A stretch of 24,000 bases of DNA from Superficieibacter electus (lineage in GTDB: Bacteria > Pseudomonadota > Gammaproteobacteria > Enterobacterales > Enterobacteriaceae), in NCBI RefSeq assembly GCF_002915575.1, contig NZ_PQGD01000007.1, positions 132,776-156,775 on the forward strand. The letters are read 5' to 3'. Under the pieces are notes generated by a model. The model did no database searches. It had not been told where the DNA came from and saw only the letters and a list, made by a program, of their open reading frames with translations. A program made the translations under genes and the position numbers. Below, piece by piece: positions 590 to 9,015 of this stretch (positions within the stretch are counted from its first letter, which is position 1; each line of letters begins with the position of its first letter).

Positions 590-1750
590 ATGAGCAGCAA
601 TCCATTGATCCCACAAAGTAAATTGCCAAATCTTGGCACCACAATCTTCACGCAAATGAGCGCGCTGGCGCAACAGCATCAGGCGATCAATTTGTCACAG
701 GGGTTTCCTGACTTTGACGGTCCGCGTTATTTGCAGGAGCGGCTGGCGTATCATGTTGCGCAGGGCGCGAACCAGTACGCCCCGATGACCGGCGCTCTGG
801 CGCTGCGCGAAGCCATTGCTGATAAAACCGCTGAGCTTTATGACTATCGTGTGAATGTGGACAGCGATATTACCGTAACGGCTGGTGCGACTGAGGCGCT
901 GTACGCGGCGATAACCGCCCTGGTGCGCGAAGGCGATGAGGTTATTTGCTTCGATCCCAGCTATGACAGTTATGCCCCGGCGGTTGCGTTGTCCGGCGGG
1001 GTGGTTAAACGCCTGGCACTGCAACCGCCGCATTTTCGCGTGGACTGGCAGGCATTCGCCGGTTTACTCACTGAACGCACCCGGCTGGTGATCCTGAATA
1101 CGCCGCATAATCCTTCGGCGACTGTCTGGCGCAATGACGATTTTAGCGCGCTGTGGCAGGCGATTCACGATCGGGAAATTTATGTCGTCAGTGATGAAGT
1201 TTATGAGCATATCTGTTTTGCCCGTGAAGGACATGCCAGCGTGCTGACGCACCCGCAGTTGCGTGAACGCGCCATTGCCGTGTCGTCATTTGGTAAAACC
1301 TACCATATGACCGGATGGAAAATTGGTTATTGCGTCGCTCCGGCAGCCATTAGTGCGGAGTTACGTAAGGTGCATCAGTACTTAACTTTCGCCGTAAACA
1401 CGCCGGCGCAGTTGGCACTGGCTGACATGTTGCGTGCCGAACCTGAGCATTATCGTTATCTGCCGGAGTTTTACCGTCAGCGGCGCGATGTATTTATTAA
1501 CGCGTTGAGTGACAGTCGTCTGGAGCTTCTGCCCTGCGAAGGAACTTATTTTCTGCTGGCTGATTATAGCGCGATCTCCGATCTGGATGATGTTAGCTTC
1601 TGTCGCTGGCTGACGACCGACGTCGGCGTTGCGGCAATTCCTCTGTCGGTATTTTGCGCCGATCCTTTCCCGCATAAGCTAATTCGCCTGTGCTTTGCGA
1701 AGCAGGAATCGACGCTGCTGGCCGCCGCAGAGCGGCTATGTAAACTGTAA
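590..1750 (+). CDS. ybdL: methionine-preferring class I PLP aminotransferase
   Basis: From ATG 590 the protein (MSSNPLIPQSKLPNLGTTIFTQMSALAQQHQAINLSQGFPDFDGP...) is 386 aa. It aligns end to end with E. coli YbdL as I recall it. PLP-lysine context SSFGKTYHMTGWK. The ORF-track start at 554 is a GTG extension. Confidence 0.93.
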   Translation: MSSNPLIPQSKLPNLGTTIFTQMSALAQQHQAINLSQGFPDFDGPRYLQERLAYHVAQGANQYAPMTGALALREAIADKTAELYDYRVNVDSDITVTAGATEALYAAITALVREGDEVICFDPSYDSYAPAVALSGGVVKRLALQPPHFRVDWQAFAGLLTERTRLVILNTPHNPSATVWRNDDFSALWQAIHDREIYVVSDEVYEHICFAREGHASVLTHPQLRERAIAVSSFGKTYHMTGWKIGYCVAPAAISAELRKVHQYLTFAVNTPAQLALADMLRAEPEHYRYLPEFYRQRRDVFINALSDSRLELLPCEGTYFLLADYSAISDLDDVSFCRWLTTDVGVAAIPLSVFCADPFPHKLIRLCFAKQESTLLAAAERLCKL

Positions 1751-2377
1751 TTACTTAACGGTCCAGCCTTCGGAGTATTGACGGTCGCTAAACAGTTCCA
1801 GCAGACCATTTACCTGTTTCAGGCGCAGTACTTCGTCGGCATCCATTCCCAGCTCTTTGCCTATTTTTATATTATCCCAGCCCAGCTGTACCAGCTCGCG
1901 GACAATTTCCGACATCGCATTAATTTGATGGCGGCCCCTGGCACGATTATGACGTATAGTGGACGCCATGCGGGAAGAACGTTTGTCTGCGCTCTCCTTC
2001 AGGCGTGCAATGGGCAGGTACCCTTTGAGCTTTCGCACCAGCGAGCTTTTACATTGCGCCAGCTGCTGGCGATGAAAACCATCGATGATTTCATAGCCGC
2101 CGCGCTCGCTCTCAGCAACCACGACGGGTTGGGTAAAACCATCCGCTTCAAGAGAACGCAAGAGAAGCCGGTTTTCTGGTGGCGCGACATTATTGGGGTT
2201 GTAATTATTAGCGGCGAGCTTCTCATTTTTTACCCATAATACACAGTCGACAGGGTTGTCATTAAAAGGGCTAAACTCGTGTAACACCCGGCGAAAATTA
2301 TTGATTGCTTCAATACGTTCTGCCTCTGGCAACTTGTCCAGATAACAAGCCAGAACCAACATTATTCGCTCTTGCAT
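1751..2377 (-). CDS. ybdM: ParB/sulfiredoxin-like nuclease-domain protein with C-terminal HTH (YbdM/IbrB family)
   Basis: ParB-N-like core FTQPVVVAESERGGYEIIDGFHRQQLA and a C-terminal helix-turn-helix-like IKIGKELGMDADEVLRLK. ATG at 2377 gives 208 aa; the alternative GTG at 2389 gives 212 aa. AAGGAG lies upstream. Either start overlaps the 3' end of ybdN (stop 2362-2364). Confidence 0.85.
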   Translation of the reverse strand: MQERIMLVLACYLDKLPEAERIEAINNFRRVLHEFSPFNDNPVDCVLWVKNEKLAANNYNPNNVAPPENRLLLRSLEADGFTQPVVVAESERGGYEIIDGFHRQQLAQCKSSLVRKLKGYLPIARLKESADKRSSRMASTIRHNRARGRHQINAMSEIVRELVQLGWDNIKIGKELGMDADEVLRLKQVNGLLELFSDRQYSEGWTVK

Positions 2378-3585
2378 AAAATATTCCACTCCTTGCGTTT
2401 ATTTTTTATCCGTTCATTGTAGCGGTGGTAATGCGCTGGTTTATTTGGGCTAAATGATAGCATTCGACACCAGTAGTCGTTATTGAGTAAAACCTTGCAT
2501 ATACGTCGCCAGGAGGGGATATCTTTTGAACCAATATCTCCCGCCTGAGTATCTGGAATATCCGCCATCCCCTTATTTTGGTACCAGCGCAAATAAACGG
2601 CAATTTTATTGCGATAATGTTCAGCGGTCTTCTGCGGCATGCTCTCAAGCAACAATAGTGCGTAGCTTTTCCAGGTGTGATTATTCGGCTTCATCAACTG
2701 GCGATGGCCGTAGAATTTACTGTCCTGGCCGGCATAAATCCCGCCGCTGTGCACCCCGCTCACACGCTGACACATACGGCCCCAACGCTCAGGCTCCAGC
2801 ACATGATACAGCCAGAGCCCCTGACGCTGCTCGGGGCCAAAAGGTTCACAAATGCGCATATAGCGTGGCGGCACTCCCGCCTGATACATCAAATTATACA
2901 AAGGATTATAGGGTTTATTGCTTTTAGCAAACCATGTCCAGATATCTGCGGTCTTCCAGTCATAGATAGGATACACATACCAGGTATGAGCGCCCGGGGC
3001 GAGCGTGGTCCAGGGTTTGTCATCAGAAAAACGATGTTTACTGCGCGAGGCGATACTGAGAAACCGATTGTAGGATTCATCAGCGCGGATACCAATCATC
3101 ACCGCCGCCGGACGCTGCTGTGAGAACCATTCAGCAAATTCCTGAACAAACACCTCAAACGACATGCCATGTTGATAAAAGGGAAAAAATTCGGGATCGG
3201 TAATCGCATCCTCCGGCGGCTGCCGCACCCATTCTGTACCCGGCTCCCAGCATTGCCATTCAGGGTTAAACTGCGTTAACGAATTCTGCGTGGTGAGCGG
3301 CAGGGCTACCCAGTAAAACGTATCAATGACATCCTGATAATAATCACGCAGGTATTCACAATGCGAGATGGTACAGGAGAATTGGGCTTCCCAGTCAATA
3401 AAAAGAACGCTGATTTTTTTTCCTGATTCACGCGCCAACTGGGCGGCGAGATGAAGCATTAACGTTGAATCTTTGCCCCCGGAAAAAGAAATACATACGC
3501 GAGTGAAATTTTGCAGCGTCCATTGGATACGCTCCCGACTGGCTTCCAGAACATTCTGGACCAGGGGTAATTTATGTAGAGACAT
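2362..3585 (-). CDS. ybdN: PP-loop ATPase / PAPS-reductase-like protein with a DUF3440-type C-terminal region (YbdN/IbrA family)
   Basis: 407 aa. The PP-loop SGGKDS is encoded at 3466-3483 (reverse complement TCCGGGGGCAAAGATTCA). The length and sequence match my recollection of E. coli YbdN (406 aa). Confidence 0.88.
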   Translation of the reverse strand: MSLHKLPLVQNVLEASRERIQWTLQNFTRVCISFSGGKDSTLMLHLAAQLARESGKKISVLFIDWEAQFSCTISHCEYLRDYYQDVIDTFYWVALPLTTQNSLTQFNPEWQCWEPGTEWVRQPPEDAITDPEFFPFYQHGMSFEVFVQEFAEWFSQQRPAAVMIGIRADESYNRFLSIASRSKHRFSDDKPWTTLAPGAHTWYVYPIYDWKTADIWTWFAKSNKPYNPLYNLMYQAGVPPRYMRICEPFGPEQRQGLWLYHVLEPERWGRMCQRVSGVHSGGIYAGQDSKFYGHRQLMKPNNHTWKSYALLLLESMPQKTAEHYRNKIAVYLRWYQNKGMADIPDTQAGDIGSKDIPSWRRICKVLLNNDYWCRMLSFSPNKPAHYHRYNERIKNKRKEWNILCKSE

Positions 3586-3639
3586 TTTACTACCTTATTT
3601 TAAATGTTCAAAAGGTTAAAGTAAATTCTCAGGGAGATA

Positions 3640-3665
3640 AACCCCGTGCTGTTAATTTCGGGGTT
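3640..3665 (-). terminator. hairpin downstream of ybdO (weak intrinsic terminator candidate)
   Basis: AACCCCG (3640-3646) pairs with CGGGGTT (3659-3665) around a 12-nt loop. On the minus strand the hairpin is followed only by TTTAT, so the U-tract is poor. Confidence 0.35.
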
Positions 3666-3740
3666 ATTATTACGCATCTTTTTAAAGTAGTAAATTAATT
3701 TGTTTTATTAGTCAGGTGAATAATATTTTTGGGGGCAATA

Positions 3741-4640
3741 TTAATTTTCGGTGATCGTATTAATGAATTCTGAAAAGGTCTGATTGTTAAGCGAGGCCCG
3801 ATTATACATAATGTAGATATTAAAGGGCGAGAATGTGATGGGAAGTGTGATTTTTTTCAGATTAAGAGAGTGCTTAAAAGCCTCATAAGTATTCTCTGTC
3901 ATTAAACCTACCAGGTCGGAGGCACTGAGTATATTCATAATGCTAATAAATGAATCACTGCGAAAAGCAATTTTTCGTCCAGGGAGTAAGGCTTCTACTT
4001 CTGCCTGGAACTGACGTAAACCAGGGTCTTTGTTATCAAGGAAAGTGAAATCTTCATTAAGTAACGCTTCGAGGTTACTACTGTTACCCAGCCGGGGATG
4101 ATCTTTACGGCATACCGCGACGACCGGTAGCTGCTTGTAAAGTGAGCAGCAAATGGAACGATTTGCGGTAGGGGAAACCGAAAAAATAAGATCGGCTTTG
4201 CGGTAGGCCAGCAGATCTTCAGCTGACTCAGACGACATCAGCAGATCGTGGTGCTCAATTTCGAACTGGGTGCTGCGCAGTAATAGTTGCAGGGGGTTGA
4301 TTAACCCGGCCGTGAGCAATAATTGTGGACAGTAAATAACGAAATGTTTGCGCAGCGACGAACTGTGGGTGATGTTGATGGTTTGTTCAATTTGGTTAAG
4401 GTTTTGTTCCAGATGGAGATGCAGGTTAATGCCCACGGTGGTGGGGGTAATGCCTTTGCCGGATCGGATAAACAAAGGATCGTCCAGTTGAACACGCAGA
4501 CGTTGTAACGACTGGCTAACCGCTGATGGGGTAATATATAGGGTGGCCGCTGCTTTACTGATACTCAAATGTTGATAGATGCACTCAAAAATAACCAGTA
4601 AATTGAGATCGAACTTTTTAAGGTCATAGAGATTAGCCAT
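3741..4640 (-). CDS. ybdO: LysR-type transcriptional regulator
   Basis: 299 aa. N-terminal LysR HTH ISKAAATLYITPSAVSQSLQRLR. Same position and orientation as E. coli ybdO, upstream of ybdN-ybdM. Markedly AT-rich: 23 G+C in the 60 nt at 3781-3840, counted by hand. Confidence 0.85.
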   Translation of the reverse strand: MANLYDLKKFDLNLLVIFECIYQHLSISKAAATLYITPSAVSQSLQRLRVQLDDPLFIRSGKGITPTTVGINLHLHLEQNLNQIEQTINITHSSSLRKHFVIYCPQLLLTAGLINPLQLLLRSTQFEIEHHDLLMSSESAEDLLAYRKADLIFSVSPTANRSICCSLYKQLPVVAVCRKDHPRLGNSSNLEALLNEDFTFLDNKDPGLRQFQAEVEALLPGRKIAFRSDSFISIMNILSASDLVGLMTENTYEAFKHSLNLKKITLPITFSPFNIYIMYNRASLNNQTFSEFINTITEN

Positions 4641-4684
4641 AACTCAGCCTTATGTATTGCGGTTTGTCCAGGAATGTTATATAG

Positions 4685-4693
4685 ATTATAACA
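4685..4693 (-). promoter_or_regulatory. extended -10 promoter element (TGtTATAAT) for ybdO, embedded in a 6-5-6 dyad
   Basis: The minus strand reads TTGTTATAATC, i.e. TGnTATAAT, about 45 nt upstream of the ybdO ATG. The same bases form the dyad GTTATA-tagat-TATAAC (4676-4692), which also fits a LysR T-N11-A autoregulatory box. Confidence 0.4.
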
Positions 4694-5212
4694 ATGGTTT
4701 TTTCGTATTCATTCACAAACCGCGTGATCAATTATATCTACTAACGATTTGACTTAAAATAAAGATATCATAAAAAGCAAGCATTAACCAGACGATTTAT
4801 GATAGTGATATGGATGACAACGATTACTTACATTTCTGGCATGAATTCACTTTTCAGGCATGAGAGAAATCTGTAGCAATGCCAAATAAATTAATTATTC
4901 ATGTAATTAATGAAAATAAGTATCGGTTACACAGGGAAGCTAATTTACCGGCAGCGGACAGTCATCTTAATTGATAGTCTTAGTGATTAAATGGTGTAGG
5001 CTATCAGAGCCATAGGCAGGGCCTCTTAAATCCTGATTGCCCTTTTAACTATAGGGTGATGTAATCCCGCACGCTGGGACCCGGTCATTACTCGTCAGTC
5101 CATCGCTTCAGGCAGTATTGAGTCTGTTAACTTGTTCTTAACATTTATTGTGACTCTCTGCTACACGATTGCATTTATGCCCGGAGTTCACAACATCGTC
5201 ATACGATGGTTG

Positions 5213-5249
5213 TTAGCTAACGCTTATTGATTTGATAATGGAAACGCAT
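5213..5249 (+). promoter_or_regulatory. OxyR binding site of the ahpC promoter
   Basis: TTAG-n7-TTAT-n7-ATAA-n7-GCAT follows the ATAG-n7-CTAT-n7-ATAG-n7-CTAT spacing. The stretch attgatttgataatggaaacgcattagccgaatc is nearly identical to the E. coli ahpC OxyR region as I recall it. It lies 60-95 nt upstream of the ahpC ATG. Confidence 0.6.
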
Positions 5250-5309
5250 TAGCCGAATCACAAAAATTTCGTTAACTTACACCTCAACGAAAACACGGAG
5301 GAAGTATAG

Positions 5310-5873
5310 ATGTCCTTGATTAACACTAAAATCAAACCTTTTAAAAACCAGGCGTTCAAAAACGGTGAATTCATCGAAGTTACCGAAAAAGATACCGAAG
5401 GCCGCTGGAGCGTCTTCTTCTTCTATCCGGCAGACTTCACCTTCGTCTGCCCGACTGAACTGGGTGACGTAGCGGATCACTACGACGAACTGCAGAAACT
5501 GGGCGTGGACGTTTACTCCGTTTCCACTGACACCCATTTCACCCATAAAGCATGGCACAGCAGCTCTGAAACTATCGCCAAAATCAAATACGCGATGATC
5601 GGCGACCCGACCGCTGCGCTGGCACGCAACTTTGAAGTGCTGCGTGAAGATGAAGGCCTGGCTGACCGTGGTACTTTCATCGTTGACCCGCAGGGCATCA
5701 TCCAGGCAGTTGAAGTGACCGCTGAAGGTATTGGCCGCGATGCGTCTGACCTGCTGCGTAAAATCAAAGCCGCTCAGTATGTTGCTTCCCACCCAGGCGA
5801 AGTGTGCCCGGCTAAGTGGAAAGAAGGCGAAGCGACCCTGGCTCCTTCCCTCGACCTGGTCGGCAAAATCTAA
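5310..5873 (+). CDS. ahpC: alkyl hydroperoxide reductase, peroxiredoxin subunit C
   Basis: 187 aa, [28 protein letters not shown]... Peroxidatic Cys in FTFVCPTE and resolving Cys in EVCPAKW. Strong SD GGAGGA upstream. Near-identical to E. coli AhpC. Confidence 0.98.
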
Positions 5874-5914
5874 ATTTCCGTCGTCTTTCACGCCATAGCG
5901 GCGTTGGCGTCGCC

Positions 5915-5958
5915 TGCTCACCCCGGTCACTTACTCATGTAAGCTCCCGGGGATTCAC
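5915..5958. repeat. ERIC (IRU) enterobacterial repetitive intergenic consensus, central inverted-repeat core
   Basis: tgctcaccccggtcacttactc matches the reverse complement of the ERIC2 primer sequence at 19/22. atgtaagctcccggggattcac matches ERIC1R at 21/22. The flanks (about 5893-5998) look like degenerate ERIC arms. Confidence 0.8.
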
Positions 5959-8768: not shown

Positions 8769-8810
8769 TTTTTACTCCGTGTTATTGTTGAAAGCTATAC
8801 GCTGCAAAAT

Positions 8811-8845
8811 CCAAAAGAAAACCCCCACCTTCAGAGGTGAGGGTT
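8811..8845 (-). terminator. strong minus-strand intrinsic terminator with no annotated gene upstream of it
   Basis: AACCCCCACCT (8820-8830) pairs with AGGTGAGGGTT (8835-8845): 10 bp plus one C/A mismatch, 4-nt loop. On the minus strand it is followed by TTTCTTTTGG. It lies 45-75 nt upstream of the rnk ATG. Confidence 0.6.
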
Positions 8846-9015
8846 AGCAGACCCCATCATACTGAGAGTTGGCCCGACTTTGAAGTGACCTGGCGCACAG
8901 AAGTCAGCGCCTGTGTCGCAGGCATTTTTTGCGACGGCCATCGCTTTTCATCATTCTGGCTTATGCTTTTAAACATCGTTGCATAGTGCAGCGCCCGGAC
9001 ACAACAGGAGTGCTC

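Follow-up and report, generated by a model that had tools for sequence, protein, structure and literature searches.

What reaction is served by a PP-loop enzyme that is encoded beside a ParB-like protein in phages, bacteria and archaea alike? This question is raised by ybdN and ybdM, two overlapping genes in a stretch of 24,000 nucleotides (nt) of the Superficieibacter electus genome (contig NZ_PQGD01000007.1, positions 132,776 to 156,775). This whole stretch is hereafter called the window; all coordinates refer to it, and the operon and its features lie on its minus strand. Sandt et al. reportedly found in 2002 that activation of prophage eib genes in ECOR-9 requires both of the related proteins IbrA and IbrB, and we know of no activity assigned to IbrAB since that description. 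We found that the pair is an obligate, usually overlapping, self-contained two-gene module, which moves among phages, plasmids, genomic islands and the chromosomes of bacteria and archaea. As a tentative reading, which falls somewhat short of an even chance, we propose that DNA-associated adenylation by YbdN, targeted by YbdM, alters the expression of silent mobile-element genes.

YbdN and YbdM form an obligate two-gene module

The loci that encode homologues of YbdN were sampled as 80 viral and 80 cellular loci. The genome scan used a 10-sequence alignment, and the cellular loci come from Enterobacteriaceae, Proteus, an Aeromonadaceae metagenome-assembled genome, Vibrio plasmids, Bacillota, Actinomycetota, Bacteroidota, Lentisphaeria, Planctomycetes, other phyla and two archaea (one ANME-1 archaeon and Promethearchaeum). 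The open reading frames (ORFs) of these 160 loci were compared with a profile of the YbdM ParB core, and a partner was sought within 1.5 kb on the same strand. An IbrB-like gene was present in 157 of the 160 loci, and the three loci without it are cut off by a contig end no more than about 400 nt away from the enzyme gene. The first-pass annotation of this stretch, made from the sequence alone, had made its interpretation depend on homologues occurring in conserved pairs across genomes, and this is what the sampled loci display. The ibrA-ibrB order was seen in 108 loci (every one of the 32 enterobacterial chromosomal loci, 42 from other genomes and 34 from viral contigs) and the ibrB-ibrA order in 49, mostly viral. 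Where ibrA comes first, the start of ibrB overlaps the end of ibrA in 72 of 109 cases and lies at most 20 nt away in 14 more (86/109).

In the window, ybdM could begin at GTG 2389, ATG 2377 or ATG 2362, and the first two of these had both been offered initially as a start overlapping the ybdN stop. Since ATG 2377 alone is conserved (M1 is invariant in 20 orthologues), the true overlap is of 16 nt (2362..2377), from the ATG at 2377..2375 to the TAA stop codon of ybdN at 2364..2362. The sequence AAGGAG stands ahead of this start, at 2394..2389, and the identical 16-nt overlap recurs in 27 of the 32 enterobacterial orthologous loci. We infer from this arrangement that translation of ybdM is coupled to that of ybdN.

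Clustering of the neighbouring ORFs in the 128 non-enterobacterial loci gave no conserved third gene. The neighbourhoods of DUF3440-containing homologues, a survey that had been suggested at the outset, were examined through a Pfam census covering 150 proteins that flank the pair in 48 non-enterobacterial genomes, and their content was mixed: the 25 families listed, which are those with the most members matched, include no cysteine desulfurase, ABC-ATPase/DndE, DndD, Ssp, BREX or nuclease, and the flanks show no defence-gene enrichment.

The pair is the orthologue of E. coli ybdNM

Three genes run along the minus strand of the window, ybdO/citR (4640..3741), ybdN (3585..2362) and ybdM (2377..1751), with ybdL on one side and ahpC/ahpF on the other as in E. 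coli, which gives the order ybdL-ybdM-ybdN-ybdO(citR)-ahpC. ybdN (2362..3585) encodes an IbrA-like protein of 407 amino acids (aa) in COG3969, assigned by its ORF and by Pfam and PHROG matches to the PP-loop enzymes of the ATP-pyrophosphatase type. ybdM (1751..2377) encodes an IbrB-like protein of 208 aa, counted from the conserved ATG, with a predicted N-terminal domain of the ParB/sulfiredoxin (Srx) fold and a putative helix-turn-helix (HTH). The LysR-type gene ybdO (3741..4640), which the first-pass annotation had already placed directly upstream of ybdN, lies on the same strand, and its product matches the NCBIfam equivalog 'transcriptional repressor CitR' at 1.1e-145.

Among the 32 enterobacterial loci, ybdL is found in 26 and ahpC in 28; a CitR homologue accompanies 21 of them and none of the loci elsewhere. 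YbdM is 100% identical to S. electus CHU32_10340, and the closest database match of YbdN is 89% identical; E. coli YbdN shares 74%, at the lower end of the enterobacterial range (74-89%). Relatives bear the database names 'IbrA family prophage gene co-activator' and 'IbrB-like domain-containing protein'. A megablast of the locus against E. coli genomes gave no match, the source being another genus, and blastn at lower stringency recovered the E. coli orthologue at about 70% identity; ybdNM is present, annotated ybdN/ybdM, in 5398 of 5426 complete E. coli genomes. Based on the synteny of the window, the CitR equivalog and the annotated E. coli match, the pair is the chromosomal ybdN-ybdM operon, an orthologue of E. 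coli ybdNM and a member of the IbrA/IbrB family, as had been proposed from the sequence.

IbrA/IbrB of ECOR-9 and YbdN/YbdM of K-12 resemble the window pair in combining a PAPS_reduct plus DUF3440 enzyme with an IbrB-like ParB/HTH partner, in the same gene order and with the same 16-nt overlap, and the chromosomal locus matches that of E. coli ybdNM. No structural difference separates the E. coli pair from ours; the window locus differs in having no dsbG ORF of at least 60 aa between ybdO and ahpC. Neither the gene pair nor its family name is new, nor is its uncharacterised status, and public records annotate both genes. The initial statement that the mechanism of the family is unknown agrees with the searched literature, in which no paper gives a mechanism for YbdNM/IbrAB. 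The family is large, with 1861 clusters at 50% identity (E <= 1e-3) and more than 7400 clusters at 90% identity.

YbdN is a predicted PP-loop enzyme set apart from PAPS reductases

Pfam recognises in YbdN a PAPS_reduct (phosphoadenosine phosphosulfate, PAPS, reductase) domain at aa 30-234 (E 2.7e-17) and DUF3440 (E 2.8e-33), both over the curated cut-offs. The protein matches phrog_2302 at 2.3e-81, phrog_15645 spans aa 204-403 at 1.8e-95, and its top structural match in BFVD, a viral protein, is annotated COG3969. The PP-loop SGGKDS, read directly in the sequence at aa 35-40 (3466..3483), and the long C-terminal extension behind it are as the first-pass annotation had described them, the extension corresponding to DUF3440. 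Judged from its residues, the loop is of the canonical ATP-pyrophosphatase type. S35, G37, K38, D39 and S40 are at least 95% conserved among 129 non-redundant homologues, and G37, K38 and S40 are invariant in a wider set of 35 sequences. The PAPS-reductase-like alpha/beta domain (aa 30-234, 2884..3498), delimited by Pfam, conservation and structural alignment, also carries D64-x-E66, GIR167xDE170S171xxR174 and YPIYD209W210xxxD214IW216; within these, D64-x-E66, R167-x-x-E170-S171-x-x-R174 and D209-W210...D214-x-W216 are likewise at least 95% conserved in the 129 homologues. Such conservation of the PP-loop and the family motifs suggests that YbdN is under selection as an enzyme. Many tryptophans are conserved as well (W92, W110, W113, W119, W210, W216 and W268).

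The DUF3440 region (aa 237-403, 2377..2877), defined by Pfam and phrog_15645 and helical in the model, has the motifs R244-x-C246-x-P248-F-G250 and S358-W359-R-R...N369-D370, and a profile of the C-terminal approximately 170 residues found no relative in the PDB. An AlphaFold2 model of YbdN built from 140 sequences reached a mean predicted local distance difference test (pLDDT) of 85.6 and a predicted template modelling score (pTM) of 0.79, with residues 282-294 disordered. Foldseek aligned only the N-terminal approximately 240 residues of this model, and the nearest PDB entries were CysH, the PAPS domain of human FAD synthase, yeast FMN adenylyltransferase (FMNAT), adenosine phosphosulfate (APS) reductases and CysD; LarE, TilS, TtuA and NcsA followed with weaker matches. 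For CysH, CysD and FMNAT/FAD synthase the E values range from 2e-6 to 3e-4, with target-normalised TM-scores of 0.55-0.64; the identity of the matches, those to LarE, TilS and TtuA included, is 14-18%. These nearest solved folds, FMNAT-FAD synthase included, share the R-x-x-E-S...R and D-W motifs with the N-domain of YbdN. The CysD-CysN couple is also alike in pairing the enzyme with a partner that binds a nucleoside triphosphate (NTP), whereas the partner of YbdN is ParB-like and not a GTPase.

Despite this fold, YbdN is not a PAPS or APS reductase of the CysH type. The curated NCBIfam models of the sulfate pathway (CysH, APS reductase, CysD) score it at 18-40 bits against cut-offs of 154-414; for the CysH and APS-reductase models the values are 39.8 vs 154 (PRK02090), 34.9 vs 254 (TIGR02057), 31.3 vs 165 (TIGR00434) and 17.9 vs 235 (TIGR02055). 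Its sequence has no ECGLH catalytic cysteine, no ECG motif and no Cys-Cys...CxxC iron-sulfur (Fe-S) set of APS reductases, its PP-loop is of the ATP type, and it differs from CysH in lacking the C-terminal catalytic cysteine and in having an extra helical domain. A census of cysteines found C246 in 95% of the homologues, C373 in 92%, and C112 and C363 in 71%, with no pair and no cluster; C246 is absent from 13 of 35 distant homologues, and both C246 and C373 are lost in distant members. The model scores and the missing redox cysteines thus set YbdN apart from genuine assimilatory PAPS reductases; a placement among these would have spoken against the first interpretation of the pair.

The comparison with DNA phosphorothioation led to a divided result. 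It had been noted that DndC/DndB use the same domain logic, and the Dnd, Ssp and BREX type 4 systems do combine, in a DNA-linked setting, a PP-loop enzyme of the PAPS-reductase family with a ParB-superfamily protein of the DGxHR type (PMC10853773, PMC12839542); this part of the analogy stands. At the level of the enzyme it does not hold. YbdN scores 24.9 bits against the DndC model TIGR03183 (cut-off 290.4), over aa 156-227 only, and PADLOC reports partial matches to DndC (23-29 bits) and BrxP (22 bits over aa 26-108) with no system-level match for the pair, so that the likeness to DndC, SspD and BrxP is confined to a generic core of about 70-80 residues, their C-terminal parts being replaced by DUF3440. 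DndC is characterised by three 4Fe-4S cysteines and a cysteine dyad (PMC10853773), and neither an Fe-S triad nor a dyad is present in the alignments of 35 and 129 homologues of YbdN. The usual partners (DndA/IscS, DndD, DndE, SspA/B/C, PglZ, BrxC) are found neither beside the pair in the window, where ybdL and ybdO flank it, nor among the listed flank families. YbdN was therefore rejected as a DndC or SspD, its model score being far under the cut-off with Fe-S cysteines and operon partners missing, and also as BrxP of BREX type 4, given the partial 22-bit match, the lack of a DUF4007 fusion and the lack of PglZ, BrxC or BrxL neighbours. A natural fusion of YbdN to ParB was sought in ten long homologues, none of which has a ParB domain; one contains an ABC_tran fragment.

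YbdM is a ParB/Srx-like protein with a probable helix-turn-helix

YbdM carries YEIIDGFHRQQLA, and the motif EIIDGFHRQQLA was confirmed in it. Its Pfam ParB_N score, 23.4 bits, is slightly under the gathering score of 26.3, and its assignment to the ParB type is based on a match to the PHROG family phrog_2159 'ParB-like partition protein' at 1.9e-67, on the IbrB-like names of the source proteins, and on a profile of 69 diverse IbrB-like proteins, which in the PDB matches ParB 4umk (2e-6), Noc, Spo0J and SbnI. The ParB-N/sulfiredoxin-type core that had been read from the sequence is supported by this homology.

Three motifs are invariant in the 69 proteins. The first, N57...N60-P61-N62, falls opposite PNPxQPR of ParB and Noc in a hidden Markov model (HMM) alignment. 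The second, DGFHR (aa 99-103, 2069..2083), in which D99, G100, H102 and R103 are invariant, stands in the same alignment opposite GERR and is the counterpart of ParB box II and of the GCHR of Srx. The third, IRHNRARGRH (aa 141-150, 1928..1957), with H143, N144, A146, R147, G148 and H150 invariant, is presumably equivalent to ParB box III (ENxxR). The DGxHR form is nearer to DndB, Srx and SbnI than to the CTP clamps.

The HTH that the first reading had placed behind this core is probable. It would comprise IGKELGMDADEVLRLKQ (aa 169-195, 1793..1873): ParB-family profiles align through aa 160-190, the model places helices at 169-176 and 180-195 with pLDDT 71-83, the only fairly confident part of a poor model, and in the 69 proteins R185 is invariant and L176, G177, M178, D181, E182 and L186 are at least 90% conserved.

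YbdM ends about 13 residues past the HTH, without a C-terminal dimerisation domain. No ParA-like neighbour of ybdM was found among the ORFs of the window, no inverted repeat of 12 bp or more (parS-like) was found in 1500-5400, and the protein scores 17.8 against TIGR00180, whose cut-off is 58; for these reasons a canonical partition ParB was rejected. The likeness of YbdM to VirB/KorB and to SbnI, SerK and sulfiredoxin lies in a predicted N-domain of the ParB type, which has counterparts of boxes I to III and precedes a probable HTH. It differs from these switches in having DGFHR and not GERR and, unlike them, it is always encoded with a PP-loop enzyme.

The operon is controlled by CitR in E. 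coli

The CitR protein of E. coli binds DNA upstream of citR-ybdNM, and deletion of citR raises ybdN by log2 5.5 and ybdM by 2.5 (PMC9068703). As the other ChIP-exo (chromatin immunoprecipitation with exonuclease) peaks of CitR are not at differentially expressed genes, citR-ybdNM is its sole confirmed direct target (PMC9068703). The same deletion nevertheless alters 86 genes, with flagellar genes up by 4-5 log2, lrhA down by 4.3 and the cys regulon up by 2-2.8 (PMC9068703), and derepressed YbdNM is a candidate mediator of these changes. H-NS has been reported to regulate citR itself in E. coli; by extension, ybdNM may also be silenced by H-NS, helped by its AT-rich upstream region. Carriage of plasmid pUUH239.2 by MG1655 came with a 29-fold rise in YbdM protein, which that study termed 'completely uncharacterized' (PMC8764527).

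The AT-rich region between ybdO and ybdN (3586..3740, GC about 0.34-0.38) is, by its composition, the presumed promoter/operator of ybdNM, and it contains a stem-loop, AACCCCG...CGGGGTT (3665..3640). Promoter-like hexamers in this region are no commoner than in shuffled sequences, for which reason we claim no promoter for ybdNM; a terminator scan was also at chance. Rfam found no RNA element within or beside the operon.

At the other end, ybdL (plus strand, end 1750) and ybdM (minus strand, end 1751) are convergent, and their stop codons abut with 0 intergenic bases (1748-1753), which leaves no room for a terminator, and the transcripts must therefore overlap. In E. coli, ybdL-ybdM was described as a convergent excludon, present in at least 50% of RNA-seq samples (PMC12288877).

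The spacer between ybdO and ahpC (4641-5309) has 669 nt and is AT-rich (GC 0.33-0.41), with no ORF of at least 60 aa except a minus-strand one (5277..5930) that merely overlaps ahpC. In E. coli K-12 this position is occupied by dsbG, which appears to be absent from the window locus. An rnk leader (RF01771) at 8810-8915 on the minus strand (Rfam 51 bits, gathering score 50) is unrelated to the pair.

Copies on phages, plasmids and islands

The ybdN-like gene is found on 313 viral contigs and in 224 phage records at the least, and homologues occur on 729 plasmid records. The viral copies have ERF, SSB, DnaB-like helicases, NinG, a replication organiser and SNF2 for neighbours, which is the content of an early replication/recombination module. 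The pair of Streptococcus phage CHPC1230, annotated IbrA/IbrB, lies between the lysin and the early genes. In Listeria monocytogenes the lmo1309-1310 pair is followed by the SNF2 gene lmo1311 (PMC5736727). An SNF2-family helicase is the first or second gene upstream of the pair in 10 of the 128 non-enterobacterial loci (e.g. L142:4562-5992), and a 137-aa protein of unknown function holds the same upstream position in 12 other loci (L127:5624-6034, with a weak phrog_26647 match).

An unannotated domain of about 130 residues, which we call domain X, was observed in 58 of the 160 loci, nearly all viral (L030:1356-1778, L041:3068-3481), and is not in the window. In 29 loci it is fused to the C-terminus of a long IbrB (about 380 aa), and in the other 29 it is encoded by a separate adjoining gene. 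It is marked by the motifs H-x-x-x-x-W-E, W-x-x-S-C-E-H-x-L-T-N, N-R-x-A-W-L-G-Q-A and A-N-x-x-A, none of its cysteines is invariant, and searches of Pfam, PHROGs and PDB profiles gave no match. Domain X is likely a third component of the phage versions.

A second, ibrAB-type copy is found in 2146 of the 5426 E. coli genomes (about 40%). Such accessory copies are about 56-62% identical and are located on islands and plasmids; seven of their contexts were inspected, a small sample. In a Klebsiella virulence-type plasmid (K. pneumoniae pEcl8, L162:8989-10850) the pair lies between fecIRA and iroBCDN. It adjoins autotransporter genes in two of the seven contexts, and in another it follows a saf/afa fimbrial operon and precedes a LysR gene. 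On an E. coli plasmid the pair adjoins a TonB-dependent receptor and a PerC-family regulator follows about 4 kb away, an accessory pair on an E. coli chromosome also adjoins a TonB-dependent receptor, and on one island with iuc the pair stands directly ahead of a PerC-family regulator. These horizontally acquired surface and iron-uptake contexts fit a role in switching such genes on, as with eib.

On a Salmonella Newport plasmid, a LysR-family gene (L164:9595-10542) downstream of the ibrAB-type pair echoes the ybdO-ybdNM arrangement, in which the regulator is upstream. Iron-uptake genes (fecIRA, iroBCDN, TonB receptors, iuc) recur beside the enterobacterial accessory copies (L162, L165, L167, L168). 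The core ybdNM is a few genes away from the enterobactin cluster in E. coli, and SbnI, which has a ParB/Srx fold, regulates a siderophore operon; the iron link may be real or may reflect typical island content.

Discussion

The mechanism that we tentatively propose starts from an operon that its own LysR-type repressor, CitR/YbdO, ordinarily holds silent, a repression shown in E. coli. Upon derepression, both proteins would be made from one mRNA, the translation of ybdM being coupled to the termination of ybdN through the 16-nt overlap. YbdM would bind DNA by its HTH and an NTP in its ParB/Srx pocket (NPN, DGFHR, HNxARGxH), acting as the targeting or switch subunit. YbdN would bind ATP at its PP-loop and adenylate a substrate at or near the DNA with release of pyrophosphate, and the AMP-activated group would then be resolved by group transfer. 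DNA or a nucleotide would be the likeliest substrate, and a DNA-bound protein or YbdM itself is possible. The outcome would be an altered expression of silent acquired genes, such as those of prophages, of adhesin or autotransporter islands and of siderophore islands.

The connection to DNA is drawn from the homology of the partner to ParB, Noc and Spo0J and its HTH, from the replication-gene setting in phages and from the SNF2 neighbour in Listeria, and the expression-switch outcome matches the sole known phenotype of IbrAB, activation of the prophage eib genes. The first-pass annotation had suggested that the pair may adenylate or thiolate its substrate, and of these plain adenylation seems the likelier, since the cysteines of an Fe-S cluster or dyad and the Dnd, Ssp and BREX partners are all missing; C246, present in 95% of the closer homologues, keeps a LarE-like sulfur chemistry possible. 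The context data agree no less well with its alternative suggestion, a DNA-bound regulatory switch, than with modification. There is a precedent in VirB, an NTP-gated anti-silencer of the ParB family that turns on silenced horizontally acquired genes (PMC10770331), and SbnI exemplifies a single ParB/Srx protein that is both regulator and enzyme (PMC12704722).

Several points weigh against this proposal. No activity, substrate, DNA site or complex has been demonstrated for any family member, and the lack of an inverted repeat leaves no palindromic candidate site near the operon. The YbdM model, built from 20 close orthologues, is poor (pLDDT 49), and the nucleotide preference of a ParB fold is not predictable from sequence (PMC12704722). 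The transcriptomic effects of ΔcitR could be independent of YbdNM, and deletion or overexpression of ybdM in E. coli has fitness effects of just 1-10% (PMC8764527). Surface and iron genes are common in islands anyway, so the accessory contexts may be no more than typical island content. The family is found in archaea and Gram-positives that have no H-NS, which implies that anti-silencing is not its general mechanism, and its place within phage replication modules would suit a DNA-modification or anti-restriction role just as well.

This last role is the closest competitor, a possibility that we hold to be somewhat weaker than the proposed switch: a covalent modification of DNA or of the deoxynucleoside triphosphate pool, of phage origin, in which YbdN adenylates a base or the backbone, YbdM positions the reaction, restriction or silencing is evaded, and effects on expression are secondary. 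It overlaps the adenylation switch, from which it differs mainly in product and purpose, and both could be true. In its support, the domain logic is that of DndC/DndB and of DpdA with the ParB-like DpdB (PMC10853773; PMC12839542), the viral carriers have the pair among replication and recombination modules with SNF2 neighbours, the catalytic motifs of YbdN are invariant, and its conserved tryptophans could stack on bases. On the other hand, neither a partner supplying a donor group nor a cognate nuclease is found among the neighbours, the enterobacterial accessory copies are in virulence and iron-uptake islands and not in defence islands, and PADLOC finds no system-level match. Moreover, we know of no unusual DNA modification reported in E. 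coli K-12, although the operon is repressed in that strain. That the pair is a previously unrecognised nucleic-acid modification system, a PP-loop enzyme working with no sulfur relay or Fe-S cluster under the guidance of a ParB/Srx NTP switch, is for us a doubtful but serious possibility, and we would put no more trust in the joint claim that it lays a new covalent mark on DNA or a nucleotide for escape from restriction or xenogeneic silencing. Under that reading, the mark would serve phages, plasmids and islands throughout bacteria and archaea, the core copy of E. coli and its relatives is a repressed one, and a subset of phages adds domain X or an SNF2 translocase.

It is unlikely that the pair is purely a co-activator or anti-silencer, with YbdM as an NTP-gated DNA clamp like VirB or KorB and YbdN as a non-modifying accessory (for example a loader, a nucleotide supplier or an enzyme acting on YbdM). 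Besides the precedents of VirB and KorB, the eib phenotype, the dedicated repressor of the operon and the accessory copies beside surface-factor genes and PerC or LysR regulators are in agreement with it. YbdM, however, lacks the dimerisation domain of ParB and has DGFHR in the position of GERR, the family extends to organisms without H-NS-like silencers, and the strict conservation of the catalytic residues of YbdN across domains of life argues for chemistry.

We regard as quite improbable a modification of RNA or tRNA like that of TilS, TtcA, ThiI and TtuA, aiding the translation of AT-rich or rare-codon mobile genes with the ParB-like protein as regulator or adaptor. Many PP-loop enzymes do act on tRNA, TilS, TtuA and NcsA are among the weaker structural neighbours of YbdN, and a 'co-activation' could arise post-transcriptionally; yet the partner is, as predicted from its sequence, a DNA-binding protein of the ParB/HTH type, Pfam finds no RNA-binding domain, the nearest folds are small-molecule adenylyl- and sulfo-nucleotide enzymes, and the Fe-S cysteines of TtcA/TtuA are missing.

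Still less credit can be given to an anti-phage defence or toxin-antitoxin (TA)-like module in which YbdN would be the effector and YbdM the sensor or antitoxin. Carriage by mobile elements, the flagging of Listeria lmo1309/1310 as a TA pair through guilt by association (PMC7020466), the listing of NAP-PAPS-reductase(-ParBc) operons as candidate PANGU-like defences (bioRxiv 2026.04.06.716658) and the 10% cost in growth rate of YbdM overexpression (PMC8764527) are outweighed by the partial DndC/BrxP cores that are all PADLOC gives, by flanks without defence enrichment in 48 genomes, and by a pair that is core in E. coli, syntenic in Enterobacteriaceae and common in phages themselves. Finally, a true CysH-type role in sulfur assimilation, to which the annotation 'phosphoadenosine phosphosulfate reductase', the fold nearest CysH, the rise of the cys regulon in ΔcitR (PMC9068703) and the counting of a viral 'CysH + DUF3440' clade as auxiliary metabolic genes (bioRxiv 2021.01.05.425418) could point, is already largely refuted by the NCBIfam scores, the ATP-type PP-loop, the missing ECGLH cysteine or redox pair, the extra 170-residue domain and the obligate ParB-like partner, and deserves hardly any weight.

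In comparison with the searched literature, the quantified universality of the pairing, the lack of a third partner, the sequence arguments against CysH and Dnd identities, domain X and the island and plasmid contexts appear to be new; they sharpen an existing open question and open no new one. The viral 'CysH' plus DUF3440 clade that was counted as an organosulfur auxiliary metabolic gene (bioRxiv 10.1101/2021.01.05.425418) is probably IbrA-like and not a PAPS reductase. On sequence evidence, the CysH label in viral surveys would thus be a mis-annotation, one that would inflate estimates of viral sulfur metabolism.

In summary, YbdNM is a module of near-universal carriage in E. coli (5398/5426), present on 729 plasmid records and in hundreds of phage genomes, from at least six phyla and from archaea. 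The E. coli system lends itself to direct tests, since its repressor has been identified as CitR and deletion of citR switches the operon on. Should the pair act as a switch of silent mobile-element genes, it would bear on the regulation of adhesins, autotransporters and siderophores; if it is a DNA modifier, it would represent a new chemistry alongside Dnd, Ssp and Dpd.

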